From IMG/VR virus record IMGVR_UViG_3300025010_000005, positions 36,705-100,704 of that record: a DNA stretch of 64,000 nucleotides. The stretch is one strand, 5' to 3'. The notes beneath the pieces are model-generated. The model did not search any database. It worked only from the letters and a program-made list of their open reading frames with translations, and was not told the origin of the DNA. The position numbers were made by a program, and so were the translations under genes. This DNA is from a virus. Below, in pieces: positions 3,906-53,789 of the stretch. Position 1 is the first letter of the stretch; every line of letters starts with the position of its first letter.

Positions 3906-4025
3906 GTCTCCTAATATAACAAATTAGAACTCTACATCTCCTATTTGATGTATTAGATTCATTTAAACATTTTCAGAAATTGTATAAGGTGTATTTGTAC
4001 GTCTCCTGTTACAACTTAACCTTAC

Positions 4026-4053
4026 AAAAAGAAGCCCCCTTTATGGAGGCTTC
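4026..4053 (-). terminator. intrinsic terminator
   Basis: GAAGCC...GGCTTC stem with A tract on the left. Confidence 0.7.
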
Positions 4054-4104
4054 ATCATATCTAAATGAATAAAACTTTTCGGGCAAAGCATATAAACTTC
4101 TGGT

Positions 4105-4527
4105 TTATTTAACTCCAAGAACTCTACGACTATATCTACTTCTATATATGCCTCTGGAAACAACTGCTGATCTTCCCATATTATAGGCACATAAGGTTCT
4201 ATGCCAATCTCCATTGAAGAACAAATTAAGTCTCTTAAGCAATCGAGCGCCAGCGTTAATATTGTCTTGAGGGTTATTCCACTTCTCTCCTTTATAGAAG
4301 TGATCTAATTTAACTTGCATCAATCCATATGCTTGACCAGAAACAACTGTTCTCCTAAAGCTTGATTCATACAAAATAACTCTTTTAATTATCTTCTCTG
4401 GTACTTTATATCTCACTGAAGCAGAATATATCTCTTTATTGTATCTGTCTCTTATATCTCCTGCATACACCTTTTCGGGTAAACAAATATTAAATAGTAA
4501 AACAATTAATAATATATATCTTAGAAT
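4105..4527 (-). CDS. lytic transglycosylase (SLT family) with N-terminal signal peptide, probable ATT start
   Basis: ESS, GLMQ and AYNMG motifs; frame open upstream of GTG 4470 to an ATT 6 nt after AAGGAG, adding LRYILLIVLLFNICLPEKVYA. Confidence 0.85.
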   Translation of the reverse strand: MLRYILLIVLLFNICLPEKVYAGDIRDRYNKEIYSASVRYKVPEKIIKRVILYESSFRRTVVSGQAYGLMQVKLDHFYKGEKWNNPQDNINAGARLLKRLNLFFNGDWHRTLCAYNMGRSAVVSRGIYRSRYSRRVLGVK

Positions 4528-4560
4528 GATTATCTCCTTATTCTCTGGTATATCCGTTAA

Positions 4561-4958
4561 AAATAAAATAAACTCCTAACTATTATCTAGTTAAGAGTCT
4601 TATAAATCCCATATATCTCGTATAGTCTTCTTTTATAGTCTCCTACGTGAGTAGGATAACCAGGAAGGTTAAACTGAACTATCCCGTTGTCCCTCGTCTC
4701 TTTCTTTCATCCTTTGATGGTTTCACGAGGTTTTTTGGAACACCCGTTTATAAACATCAGAAAATGCCGAATAGTATTTTGGCACTATTCAGAAAGAGCG
4801 AGGAACAGCGGATGAAGTTGTACACCTCCACTTGATAGTTCAGATAACCTCTGGTTTTTGTTTGTTCCCAGTATAGGCCGATCTTCACTAGGTACTTGTC
4901 GTTGCCCCTGTCCCTACAGCCCAACGTGTTGAATTCTATTTCAACATTAAACTTGTAC
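4561..4958 (-). ncRNA. candidate ~390-nt structured RNA of unknown family
   Basis: GC-enriched intergenic region with long-range pairing 4658-4704 with 4791-4856, several hairpins, upstream GTAAAATAAT motif (4964-4973) and terminator at 4561-4598. Confidence 0.65.
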
Positions 4959-4969
4959 CATGTATTATT

Positions 4970-5410
4970 TTACATCTCTTTTGCTAATTCATCACATCTC
5001 TCATTGTATTGGTTTCCAGAATGTCCTCTTACATATTGCCATGTAATATCCAAACCTTGAGTCTTCTGGTCTAACTCAATCCAAAGGTCTATATTTTTAT
5101 ATTTGGAGTTAGAATCGAATTGACCAATCCTCTTCCAGTTATGAATCCATTTTGTTATACCACTGATTACATACATGGAATCTGTATGAATCGTTATAGG
5201 GATTGTTTTTATATCTAATTTGTTCATTACCAAGATTGCTGCTTTTAATTCTTCCCTATTATTTGTTGTATATGCAGATCGTTCACCTTTAAATTCTCTT
5301 TTTTGAATTGTAAAGTGTTCGTTTCTAAGTAATAATATTGCAGAATGATTTCCTGAACCGGGATTTCCCAAACATGATCCATCACAATATGCTTCTATTT
5401 TAAAACTCAA
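4970..5410 (-). CDS. rnhA: ribonuclease HI
   Basis: DGSCLGNPG, TNNREEL, TDSMYV, NIDLW, VRGHSG-NERCDELA motifs. Confidence 0.95.
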   Translation of the reverse strand: MSFKIEAYCDGSCLGNPGSGNHSAILLLRNEHFTIQKREFKGERSAYTTNNREELKAAILVMNKLDIKTIPITIHTDSMYVISGITKWIHNWKRIGQFDSNSKYKNIDLWIELDQKTQGLDITWQYVRGHSGNQYNERCDELAKEM

Positions 5411-5453
5411 ATTTCCCCCTAATAAAAAGGCCAGATTTCTCTGGCCAATAAAT

Positions 5454-5696
5454 TTACTTGCTCTGGAATAACATACAATGGCATTGTCCGTTAAACTGTA
5501 TATTATCTTCTGAATCTTTACAAGGGCAAATATATTGTCTTCTACTAACCTCTGGAACTAAATCAATAACAATGCATGGACAATAAGCTCGCTTGTATAT
5601 TTTCTCGTTGTGTGCAAGTCCTTCAACGATTGTGTCATATACTTCTTCGTTTACTGTATATCCTTTTATTTCGGCATACTTCTTTATATTAAGCAT
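5454..5696 (-). CDS. ferredoxin-thioredoxin reductase catalytic subunit-like protein
   Basis: diagnostic CPC...CPC...CHC triad in an 80-aa protein. Confidence 0.9.
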   Translation of the reverse strand: MLNIKKYAEIKGYTVNEEVYDTIVEGLAHNEKIYKRAYCPCIVIDLVPEVSRRQYICPCKDSEDNIQFNGQCHCMLFQSK

Positions 5697-9233: not shown

Positions 9234-9351
9234 AATTCATTTCCTTTCTATATTTGTACTACATTTAATTTTCAAGGTTCTATTTAAAGTAAAATAATAT
9301 TAGATAGAATTTATTTTTGCAAAAAACTCATCAAATGTTATGGAGAGATAA

Positions 9352-10636: not shown

Positions 10637-10757
10637 GATGTAAAATAATAGTATGACTATGGATAGGATGGAGTAATTAACCGTCCGACAAGAGCCTCCC
10701 TACTCTTCCATCTGTCTTTTTTTTATAGGGATTTTTGAAAGACATGGGGAGACAAAT

Positions 10758-11642
10758 ATGCCTATTAAATTTACTACCGAATATTTTAAAAATTTTGTTG
10801 AAAATAAATATCCGGGATATAGCATTATTGACGAATATAAAGGTGTTATTACAGAGATTAATTTTATCCACAACGAGTGTGGAACAATTTTTCTTAAAAA
10901 ACCTCATAGTGCGATCAACAGAAATTGTTTTTGTCCTGTATGTTGTAAAAACACTATATTTGAAAAAGATTTATTTACAAAATGGCTTAAAAAAAATAGA
11001 CCTGATTTTGAGTTTATATCTGAATATACTGATAAAATTCGTAGAGTTGTTTTAAAACATAATTGCGGAAATTTACTAGATGTTAGTTATGGCTCATTTA
11101 GAAGCGGAAAGGGTTGTCCAAAATGTAACGGTGGTGTTAGAAAAACTCACGAAGAATTTACAAAATGGATGCATGAAAATAGAAGCGATTATAAGGTTGT
11201 TGGTGTTTATAAAAACTCATCAACAAAAATTGAAGTCGTTCATGAACAATGTAAAAAATCTTGGTTTGTTTTGCCAGGGGATTTAATTCAATTTGTAAAT
11301 TGTCCTCATTGTCACATAAGTAAAGGCGAACAAGAAGTAGAAAAATATTTAATTAAAAATAATATAAAATATGAGAGAGAATTTAAATTCAAAGATTGTA
11401 AAAACATAAAAGAATTAAAATTTGATTTTTTGGTAAAATATAACGATGAAAATATTTTAATAGAATATCAGGGAATTCAACATTATGAACCAGTAAAACT
11501 TTTTGGTGGAATTAAAAAATTTGAAGCAAGTAAAAAAAGAGATTTAATAAAAAAAGAATATTGCGAACAAAATAATATAAAATTGATTTGTATAAAATAT
11601 AACGAATGTATTAGTAATAAATTAAATAAAGAATTTAATTAA
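10758..11642 (+). CDS. free-standing endonuclease: repeated zinc-ribbon modules plus C-terminal Vsr/PD-(D/E)XK-like nuclease
   Basis: three HxxC..CPxC repeats; SKGE, FDF, IEYQGIQHY, D..K..YC motifs; very AT-rich insertion between protease and capsid genes. Confidence 0.85.
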   Translation: MPIKFTTEYFKNFVENKYPGYSIIDEYKGVITEINFIHNECGTIFLKKPHSAINRNCFCPVCCKNTIFEKDLFTKWLKKNRPDFEFISEYTDKIRRVVLKHNCGNLLDVSYGSFRSGKGCPKCNGGVRKTHEEFTKWMHENRSDYKVVGVYKNSSTKIEVVHEQCKKSWFVLPGDLIQFVNCPHCHISKGEQEVEKYLIKNNIKYEREFKFKDCKNIKELKFDFLVKYNDENILIEYQGIQHYEPVKLFGGIKKFEASKKRDLIKKEYCEQNNIKLICIKYNECISNKLNKEFN

Positions 11643-14411: not shown

Positions 14412-15134
14412 ATGAGACATATAGAGGATTTAATCCTGCAAACGTTGGTTAAAATTATTTCGGATGAAGTTAGCATTTCTAGTGGAAATATGTGGCTTCT
14501 TAACCCATCATCTGAATTTGTCAATTCACAAGAAGGCCCGAATAGTGTTTCTAAAGTTTCATATCCTGTTATCGGAATCCATTATATGTCAGATGTTGTT
14601 TACAAATATAACAACTATGGCGAGAATAAATATATTTACGATTCATCTGGAAATGTTACTGAGTACTCTCCGCTTGGTGAAGTTAAAATGCCTTTGGGTA
14701 TTTCGTTATACGCAAAATCAAGAAAAGATATGAGAGAATATGGGGACAAACTATATTCATTCCTTTTAAAAAATAAATTTATCGGTTTACAAAATGATTG
14801 TGTTACTGGTGAATATTTTGCTTTAAAATTTTTGACAAAGAAAGATACTTATGAGGAAATGCCATATCAAGAAATTTATATTATTGAATGTGCATCAAGA
14901 ATTTTTAAAGAGACATTTGCACCTAGAATTGATGAGATTGTGGTTACTATTGATACTGATATAGTTGACGGAGTATCTTGTACAAACGGCCCTGCATACA
15001 TAAATCCAGACGCAGAGATATTCGAACCAGGAACTATGTTGTTATATGACGAAACAGCCGGAGTTTATTATATTTTAGACTTTTTTAGAGATGGAGAAGC
15101 AACCTATATAGCTTCTGGTGCAAATTCGATGTAA
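14412..15134 (+). CDS. tail terminator-like protein
   Basis: YPVIGI motif; immediately upstream of sheath. Confidence 0.6.
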   Translation: MRHIEDLILQTLVKIISDEVSISSGNMWLLNPSSEFVNSQEGPNSVSKVSYPVIGIHYMSDVVYKYNNYGENKYIYDSSGNVTEYSPLGEVKMPLGISLYAKSRKDMREYGDKLYSFLLKNKFIGLQNDCVTGEYFALKFLTKKDTYEEMPYQEIYIIECASRIFKETFAPRIDEIVVTIDTDIVDGVSCTNGPAYINPDAEIFEPGTMLLYDETAGVYYILDFFRDGEATYIASGANSM

Positions 15135-25697: not shown

Positions 25698-25751
25698 CCC
25701 CTCGAAAGAGGGGTTTTTCCATTATATGAATGTATAATAATTTTTGATGTT
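25698..25751 (+). repeat. 54-bp direct repeat copy 1 (terminator plus late-promoter-like motif)
   Basis: identical to 30011-30064. Confidence 0.9.
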
Positions 25752-30010: not shown

Positions 30011-30064
30011 CCCCTCGAAAGAGGGGTTTTTCCATTATATGAATGTATAATAATTTTTGATGTT
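30011..30064 (+). repeat. 54-bp direct repeat copy 2
   Basis: identical to 25698-25751. Confidence 0.9.
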
Positions 30065-53118: not shown

Positions 53119-53171
53119 ACATTTCGCCAATGTCATTCTCATATATAAAGTTATTAATAGAGGTATTATAT

Positions 53172-53789
53172 ATGAGAATGACAAAAAGCGAAGCTGGTAA
53201 ATTAGGACAACAAAAAAGTTTAGAAACTCATAAAAGAAAAAAAGAAGTTCGTATTCAAGAATATTTACAAAATCCAAATAAATGTACGTTTTGTGGAGAA
53301 AATTTAAAGTACGAAAAAAGAAAAAATAAATTTTGTTCTAGATCATGTCAGGCAAAATATTCAAACGCCAGAAGGTATAAATGTTTACAAAAACAAAACT
53401 GTATTTGTTGTGAAAAAACTTTATCAAGAAATAATGGAACTGGTTATTGCGTTGATTGTTTTGCAAAAACAAGGCGAAAACAAGTATCGGAAGATTGGTT
53501 GAATGGTACAAAAGAATATATTTCAGAGCAATTACCTAAATTTGTAAAAAGATTTATTGTTGAATATTATAAAAATACTTGTGGTAAATGTAATTTATCT
53601 ATTTGGAATAACAAACCAATACCTTTAGAAATAGATCACATTGATGGAAATCCATTGAATCATGATTTTAAAAATTTACGATTAATATGTCCTAATTGTC
53701 ATGCTCAAACCGACACATATAAAGCCAAAAATGCTGGAAACGGTAGGGCATATAGAAGAGAACGATATAAAGAAGGAAAAAGTTACTAA
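53172..53789 (+). CDS. zinc-finger HNH homing endonuclease
   Basis: CxxC, FCSRSC, LEIDHIDGN...NLRLICPNCHAQT; GAGG SD before ATG 53172. Confidence 0.92.
   Translation: MRMTKSEAGKLGQQKSLETHKRKKEVRIQEYLQNPNKCTFCGENLKYEKRKNKFCSRSCQAKYSNARRYKCLQKQNCICCEKTLSRNNGTGYCVDCFAKTRRKQVSEDWLNGTKEYISEQLPKFVKRFIVEYYKNTCGKCNLSIWNNKPIPLEIDHIDGNPLNHDFKNLRLICPNCHAQTDTYKAKNAGNGRAYRRERYKEGKSY

Follow-up and report, generated by a model that had tools for sequence, protein, structure and literature searches.

An element of about 395 nt on the minus strand, lying between the genes of an RNase HI and a lytic transglycosylase in an apparently virulent phage, is a real, lineage-specific, non-coding RNA candidate, as judged from single-sequence evidence. 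Our best explanation, which we hold tentatively and with somewhat less than even confidence, is that it represents a late, terminator-ended leader RNA with a layout like that of the lambda 6S RNA and StxS, and that it doubles as the 3' UTR of the upstream RNase H transcript. This layout, in which the element would be late leader and 3' UTR at the same time, was not weighed in the initial annotation of the region, which described a structured RNA of an unrecognised class. All coordinates refer to the analysed window, i.e., a stretch of 64,000 nt (bases 36,705-100,704 of the virus record), unless they are marked as genome coordinates.

The virus record is complete (100,704 bp with direct terminal repeats) and describes an AT-rich phage (GC 0.335) with a contractile-tail structural module, an array of 22 tRNA genes and a group I intron (genome 23834-24121; RF00028, 96.8 bits, E 8.7e-25). 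The tRNA array is located at 53.8-56.6 kb and thus not near the structured element. About 600 nt upstream of this array, we observed a perfect 18-bp inverted repeat with a 17-nt loop (53131-53183), which is part of a strongly structured stretch (z -7.6). The phage is uncultured and, given its direct terminal repeats and its own polymerase, appears virulent. No close cultured relative was found among 50,697 phage records, the tail sheath being at most about 29% identical (about 25% over the full length).

All genes neighbouring the structured element are encoded on the minus strand. Upstream, we find the RNase HI gene (4970-5410; Pfam RNase_H, E 1.4e-37), which is directly preceded by a terminator (5429-5446). 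An 80-aa protein encoded at 5454-5696 (-) matches the ferredoxin-thioredoxin reductase catalytic beta chain (Pfam E 8.4e-17). Downstream follows the lytic transglycosylase gene (4105-4545 on the minus strand including its ribosome-binding site; Pfam SLT, E 2.7e-16), which is ended by a strong terminator (4031-4053). Its ribosome-binding site AAGGAG covers 4540-4545 (-). The first canonical start codon, GTG at 4470, would lose the signal peptide. The reading frame stays open 5' of this GTG and reads ILRYILLIVLLFNICLPEKVYA-GD; judged from the sequence, translation probably starts at a non-canonical ATT (4528-4530), six bases past AAGGAG, giving a signal peptide. Between the terminator 4031-4053 and the next gene (ATG 3834), three copies of AGGAGAYGT are found at about 3906-4012 (-), about 40-55 nt apart, which could represent tiny-ORF starts or sites resembling operators or iterons. 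The small proteins encoded nearby do not match any PHROG.

Since the transglycosylase most likely starts at ATT 4528-4530, the gap between both genes spans about 4531-4969. No credible ORF was found therein, i.e., all ORFs are at most 62 aa long and lack both a ribosome-binding site and a Pfam match, which agrees with the earlier view of the region as non-coding. A small peptide or type I toxin was rejected because no ORF combines a usable ribosome-binding site with a hydrophobic product. The GC enrichment that had been claimed is real, though modest: the GC content is 0.39 for the element and 0.41 for its central rod compared to 0.32 in each flanking gene.

The initial annotation had placed a promoter motif in front of the element on the minus strand, which is confirmed as a motif match. 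The 14-nt motif GATGTAAAATAATA is found at 4963-4976 (-), where it shares bases with the final codon and the TAA stop of the RNase H gene. Three exact copies are present in the window while 0.01 are expected; the others are located at 10637, before the HNH/capsid unit, and at 15128, before the sheath gene. For the 12-mer ATGTAWAATAAT, six copies are found (0.14 expected), of which the other five precede plus-strand genes of the structural module. Motifs of this module are located about 24-108 nt upstream of plus-strand genes. These statistics support GATGTAAAATAATA as a putative late promoter without -35 element and with a predicted transcription start at about 4957-4961. Instances of the form (G)ATGTAWAATAAT(A) are observed at 9289, 10637, 15128, 19498, 25730, 30043 and 35247, all on the plus strand. 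A further copy (genome 22985, plus strand) is located inside the group I intron of the polymerase, just 5' of the intron ORF. Furthermore, a cassette of terminator plus late promoter is present before two different structural genes (25702-25751 and 30015-30064), identical over the 50 nt compared.

At the other end of the element, a terminator scan identified the intrinsic terminator that had been claimed (4561-4600, minus strand). It comprises a 13-bp AU-rich stem (4570-4600) with a GAUAA loop and a U-rich tract, has an energy of -15.1 kcal/mol and a pair probability of 0.97, and is more pronounced on the minus (z -5.1) than on the plus strand (z -3.4). About 15 nt separate it from the ribosome-binding site of the transglycosylase. 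No promoter-like site was found on the minus strand within 4546-4973, including the interval between terminator and ribosome-binding site. From this arrangement, three transcripts are predicted: an RNase H message that ends with the element as 3' UTR, a late transcript of nothing but the element, and a read-through transcript into the transglycosylase that ends at the terminator 4031-4053. Since a terminator followed by a ribosome-binding site is also found before RNase H, the gene block is apparently expressed by read-through.

A different picture is observed for the leader 10650-10775, which connects a late promoter with a free-standing HNH endonuclease gene. It is not unusually stable (z -0.5), and its CCUCCCU pairs with the HNH ribosome-binding site GGGGAGA. 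This predicted anti-Shine-Dalgarno pairing suggests translational masking, i.e., a different mechanism, and together with the low stability led us to reject the HNH leader as a parallel of the element.

The minus strand of the 413-nt stretch 4561-4973 folds with -139.8 kcal/mol, compared to -90.6 ± 5.9 kcal/mol for shuffled sequences (z -8.36; 0/100 shuffles as good), and its centroid is identical to the minimum-energy fold. When local structures are ranked by an RNALfold z-score scan of both strands of the 100.7-kb genome, the core 4657-4856 (-) comes first with z -9.63, followed by terminator clusters with z of about -7.8. Folding from the predicted transcription start reproduces this structure, the probabilities of its helices being 0.76-1.00. 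The helix that closes the 413-nt fold from 5' to 3' end has to be read as an artefact of the chosen ends, as it pairs promoter bases with the U tract of the terminator. Two further screens did not report the rod: it is not among the 25 longest pairs of an ungapped inverted-repeat finder, probably because of its bulges, and it escaped a genome scan in 200-nt windows because of the same geometry.

The core domain (4657-4857, minus strand; -84.1 kcal/mol, z -9.63) consists of the rod arms 4658-4705 and 4791-4856 around a branched interior. The rod comprises 42 bp in six segments, 41 of them Watson-Crick and one G-U, arranged in stems of 22 and 20 bp with pair probabilities of 0.92-1.00. Respective outer pairs are 4851-4856/4658-4663, 4845-4850/4666-4671 and 4834-4843/4674-4683, while the inner pairs are 4809-4811/4684-4686, 4799-4807/4688-4696 and 4791-4798/4698-4705. 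The rod of over 40 bp with a 22-nt asymmetric bulge, as initially described, is thus recovered. The bulge corresponds to an insert within the 5' arm of the rod (4812-4833), which itself folds into a 6-bp hairpin with two G-U pairs (pair probability 0.83). This hairpin is specific to the minus strand (-5.7 vs. -1.2 kcal/mol on the plus strand).

The interior of the rod (4708-4790, minus strand) is formed by a hairpin (4769-4790) and a two-tier stem (4708-4766) that is capped by a hairpin (4725-4747). Pair probabilities range from 0.76 to 0.97, and the structure is significant on the minus strand (z -3.5, 0/200 shuffles as good), compared to z -1.8 on the plus strand. Both terminal loops of the interior contain CCAAAA. 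The core is preceded by a 5' domain of three hairpins (4864-4946, minus strand) located at 4927-4946, 4900-4926 and 4864-4895, the last of which requires two G-U pairs. Here, pair probabilities are 0.88-0.98 and the z-score is -3.3 (0/200 shuffles as good; plus strand -1.7). On the 3' side (4604-4656, minus strand), we find a hairpin at 4641-4656 and a weaker one at 4604-4630, which are not significant when considered alone (z -1.5). That is, all hairpins reported earlier (4641-4656, 4867-4892, 4927-4946) as well as the terminator stem 4570-4600 reappear, with pair probabilities of 0.76-1.00.

The two pseudoknots proposed alongside did not fare as well, since both are mutually exclusive alternative pairings and not feasible tertiary contacts. 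TTCATCC/GGATGAA can form as an alternative pairing, albeit a much weaker one, while its pseudoknot version would have to cross the 20-bp inner rod with its ends about 20 bp apart. An H-type pseudoknot of TGCC/GGCA is infeasible, because GGCA abuts the hairpin without any linker and the UG of UGCC lies within the stem; it represents an alternative hairpin instead.

Next to its stability, the fold differs between the strands. For the whole stretch, the minus strand reaches -139.8 kcal/mol compared to -117.2 kcal/mol for the plus strand; for the core 4657-4856, z-scores are -9.6 and -6.34, respectively. The rod is symmetric and therefore cannot tell the strand. Outside of it, the minus strand folds better in every sub-domain. 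This advantage arises because G-U pairs of the minus strand (14 vs. 8 on the plus strand) turn into A-C mismatches in the complementary strand or at the DNA level. The folding models thus support an RNA-level structure that is read on the minus strand.

None of the known RNA families explains the element. Using Rfam 15 with gathering thresholds, the whole window contains 22 tRNAs only. With permissive filters and E<=10, the region 4400-5100 yields one meaningless lncRNA match (E 8.8). Families without match comprise 6S, GOLLD, ROOL, OLE, raiA, HEARO, phi29 pRNA, Y RNA, riboswitches and small ribozymes, i.e., also the five (6S, ROOL, GOLLD, HEARO, raiA) that had been named as worth checking, for which nothing is found at E<=10. 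This negative result is meaningful because Rfam does detect the phage's group I intron, at 96.8 bits. The earlier statement that hallmarks of tmRNA, RNase P and group I/II introns are absent is likewise in line with Rfam at E<=10.

Further candidates were tried and rejected. A tmRNA or tRNA-like RNA is not found by ARAGORN in 4000-5500. A group I intron is not supported, as RF00028 does not match the element at E<=10 and the element is intergenic, not within a gene. Retron msr-msd, DGR and group II intron RNAs need a partner reverse transcriptase, which is absent from the complete 100.7-kb genome (PF00078; control genomes matched). A phage-encoded RNase III partner can be dismissed since no RNase III gene is encoded by the phage. 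Miniature inverted-repeat transposable elements of the Correia/ERIC/RUP type were rejected because the element is single-copy in the phage. Exact searches with two 20-mers of the rod arms gave no match for the first in 2.9 million viral contigs and 185,579 species genomes; the second, searched in genome contigs only, has two matches with unrelated flanks in 185,579 species genomes, which is about chance level. For an antisense target within the phage genome, the longest complementarity is 14 nt (E 0.13). Finally, nothing convincing was found in the fold for a 3'-end antiterminator or a switch that sequesters the ribosome-binding site.

Concerning function, a 6S-like decoy, scaffold or ribozyme had been suggested, to which we find no pointer: the fold is without a central open-promoter-like bubble, GNRA loops and receptors. 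A near-perfect 42-bp duplex, as modelled here, is what one typically finds in RNase III substrates or simple rods and not in a compact catalytic fold.

The homolog search that had been proposed as a check returned no homolog of the element. A blastn search against the 50,697 phage records was empty, and the RNA had no BLAST match in G001-G005, the phage records that are related or bear an RNase H. A single-sequence covariance model (R1; 201 positions, 75 pairs) found no homolog in G001, G002, G003, G005, G006, G007 and 72 loci. A loop-pattern scan of viral contigs provided six matches, none of which fits the covariance model. With the RNase H protein as query, viral and metagenome contigs (241 million metagenome records) yielded bacterial-type proteins only (at most 51% identity), and the transglycosylase protein has no relative among the viral contigs. 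The RNase H cluster itself comprises three entries from 13 contigs with one protein sequence, the entries differing only in the call of the N-terminus. Given no homolog and a single RNase H sequence, covariation is impossible at present and the "class" consists of one sequence. An unrecognised class, as put forward earlier, is thus not demonstrable, with related phages being without the element.

Related records (G001, G005, G006 and G007; G006 is 94% complete) were found via head protease and sheath. A gene-by-gene comparison of G001, G005 and G006 with the phage reveals common structural and replication genes with 25-62% amino-acid identity and nothing in common with window positions 1 to about 8,600. 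All four records are without RNase H, transglycosylase and the RNA (based on BLAST and covariance model). G006 has 46 other ORFs in common with the phage while a counterpart of 1 to about 8,600 is absent. This minus-strand block contains the ferredoxin-thioredoxin reductase-like gene, RNase H, the RNA, the transglycosylase and a GTPase-like gene. Judged by these comparisons, the block, element included, is a lineage-specific accessory region. In G006 (IMGVR_UViG_3300021425_000014), 53.4-61.2 kb harbours several very stable intergenic elements, i.e., terminators flanked by CAATACAATAC-type repeats, without Rfam match. We rejected these as analogues of the element, as only terminator clusters with CAATACAATAC repeats were found.

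The leader reading combines these observations as follows. The element would act at the transcript level as a promoter-proximal late leader that is ended by its terminator. In early read-through transcripts, the RNase H message would carry this sequence as a structured 3' UTR. At late times, transcription would mostly halt at the terminator, such that a stable RNA of about 395 nt accumulates, and the fraction that reads through would provide transglycosylase mRNA at a low dose. Host RNase III would probably enter at the long duplex, severing the leader from the message. Support comes from the copy of the promoter motif, the predicted terminator and the downstream gene with its strong ribosome-binding site, for which no promoter motif was found.

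Several points argue against the leader reading. Attenuation needs a terminator only, which leaves 400 nt of the most stable structure of the genome unexplained. Furthermore, no other leader of a late promoter (about 24-108 nt) was found to carry such an element. In the modelled read-through fold, the ribosome-binding site of the transglycosylase does not appear to be clearly hidden. Finally, the predicted helices are without evolutionary support, and the near-complete G006 lacks the whole block. Since attenuation does not need a structure of 400 nt, a trans-acting RNA stays a serious rival.

In that case, the element would be a stand-alone phage RNA of a new kind, expressed late from its own promoter and ended by its own terminator, with the transglycosylase as an incidental neighbour. 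We regard this as possible, though rather unlikely. For example, the 42-bp rod might be a scaffold, or a decoy that occupies a host enzyme acting on double-stranded RNA or a defence sensor; the repeated CCAAAA loops might titrate away a host factor; or either the rod or the loops might bind a host or phage factor. Next to the promoter motif and the terminator, such a role would fit the most stable and best-defined fold of the genome, its GC enrichment within an AT-rich phage, a size much larger than attenuation demands, the CCAAAA common to two loops, the location in an accessory block specific to the lineage, as is common for host-interaction genes, and the lack of a match to any known family. 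On the other hand, no searched set contains a homolog and thus neither covariation nor a class is available, complementarity to the phage's own genome never exceeds 14 nt, the tertiary-motif hallmarks of large ornate RNAs are missing, and host RNase III would probably cut a 42-bp duplex. Alternatively, the element may be an intercistronic element for processing and stability of the early or middle polycistronic transcript, i.e., a structured 3' UTR that protects the RNase H message plus an RNase III site at which the transglycosylase message is cut off, as in early mRNAs of T7, with the late-promoter motif being irrelevant. Its location between two co-oriented genes of a terminator-punctuated operon is in accordance with this, as are the near-perfect duplex of 22 + 20 bp, long enough for RNase III by general knowledge of substrate lengths, and a phage without RNase III of its own, such that the host enzyme would serve. 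Nevertheless, we consider it improbable: the RNase III sites described in phages consist of a hairpin of about 60-100 nt, whereas the element is a multi-domain structure of 400 nt, and a match to the 14-mer promoter is expected by chance only 0.01 times.

The symmetry of the rod raises the question of a DNA-level element, i.e., a cruciform inverted repeat at which replication originates or recombination takes place, or else a miniature inverted-repeat transposable element. With 41/42 Watson-Crick pairs, the rod forms equally on both strands and in DNA, and the plus strand is significantly structured as well (z -6.3). The non-rod parts, however, favour the minus strand via their G-U pairs. In addition, the element is single-copy in the phage and its arm 20-mers show zero and two chance matches in 185,579 species genomes, the region is GC-enriched instead of AT-rich and without iterons, and it is not located at a point of transcription divergence, all of which renders this explanation very improbable. 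Alternatively, the near-perfect arms might point to a recent origin, i.e., to an inverted duplication that is young and without function, or to what is left of acquired DNA in decay, transcribed by position only. Its absence from all relatives and the lack of diversity among the 13 contigs of the RNase H cluster (one protein sequence) would be compatible. Yet the GC content is kept at 0.39-0.41 against a background of 0.32, the flanking domains outside of the duplication are also significantly structured (on one strand only), and promoter and terminator bracket the element precisely. We therefore give a functionless origin little credence.

Coming back to the leader reading, the closest known systems are found in lambdoid phages. 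Here, late transcripts from PR' stop at tR', which yields a short abundant RNA, and the late genes, including those for lysis, need read-through; in Stx phages, the short transcript is processed into StxS, a stable RNA of 74 nt (PMC7547250). Like for lambda 6S RNA and StxS, a putative late promoter is followed by a predicted intrinsic terminator within a few hundred nt, a likeness that concerns the layout as read from motifs, without sequence similarity between these RNAs and the element. A late promoter directly upstream is characteristic of the lambdoid layout; by motif match, the 14-mer directly upstream of the element is identical to the sheath and HNH/capsid copies. The first gene downstream of the element encodes a murein transglycosylase; lambda R is a transglycosylase, too. 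While lambda 6S RNA has a length of 194 nt, the element spans about 395 nt and is extremely structured. Furthermore, its promoter is one of several late promoters, in contrast to the single late promoter of lambdoids, and the phage, unlike lambdoids, appears virulent such that a lysogenic role does not apply.

Other systems share individual features. RNAs of the DapZ/MicL type are derived from 3' UTRs via an internal promoter, have 80-300 nt, bind Hfq and use a short seed. The element resembles them in that its promoter is located at the extreme end of the upstream coding sequence and its terminator is common with the upstream mRNA. It differs by being larger and rod-like and by having no target found in the phage genome. 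Phage RNase III sites (T7 early region, lambda N leader, sib) are single hairpins with characteristic internal loops. They are intercistronic and feature a long double-stranded stem with two or more helical turns, as does the element; the double-stranded stem of about 20 bp or more that defines such sites is found in the predicted 22 + 20 bp stems. In contrast to these sites, its duplex is set in a branched 200-nt domain with extra hairpins. Finally, the element is large, non-coding and phage-borne, which links it to GOLLD, ROOL, OLE, raiA, HEARO and 6S RNA, of which GOLLD and ROOL are often found in phages. However, it is smaller and without multi-junction ornate architecture, and it lacks the central bubble of 6S RNA. 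It is conceivable, though we have our doubts, that it is late and trans-acting and represents a new kind of large non-coding RNA of phages, of which no other member has been sequenced so far.

Only few large structured phage RNAs are known, and their roles are mostly unknown. As a single orphan sequence from an uncultured phage, the element has the value of a well-defined candidate and not of an established class. If it is indeed late and terminator-bounded before the gene of a secreted wall hydrolase, it would provide a tractable case. It might then reveal how the dose of a dangerous lysis-type enzyme is set in a virulent phage, or prove to be a trans-acting RNA of a new type.
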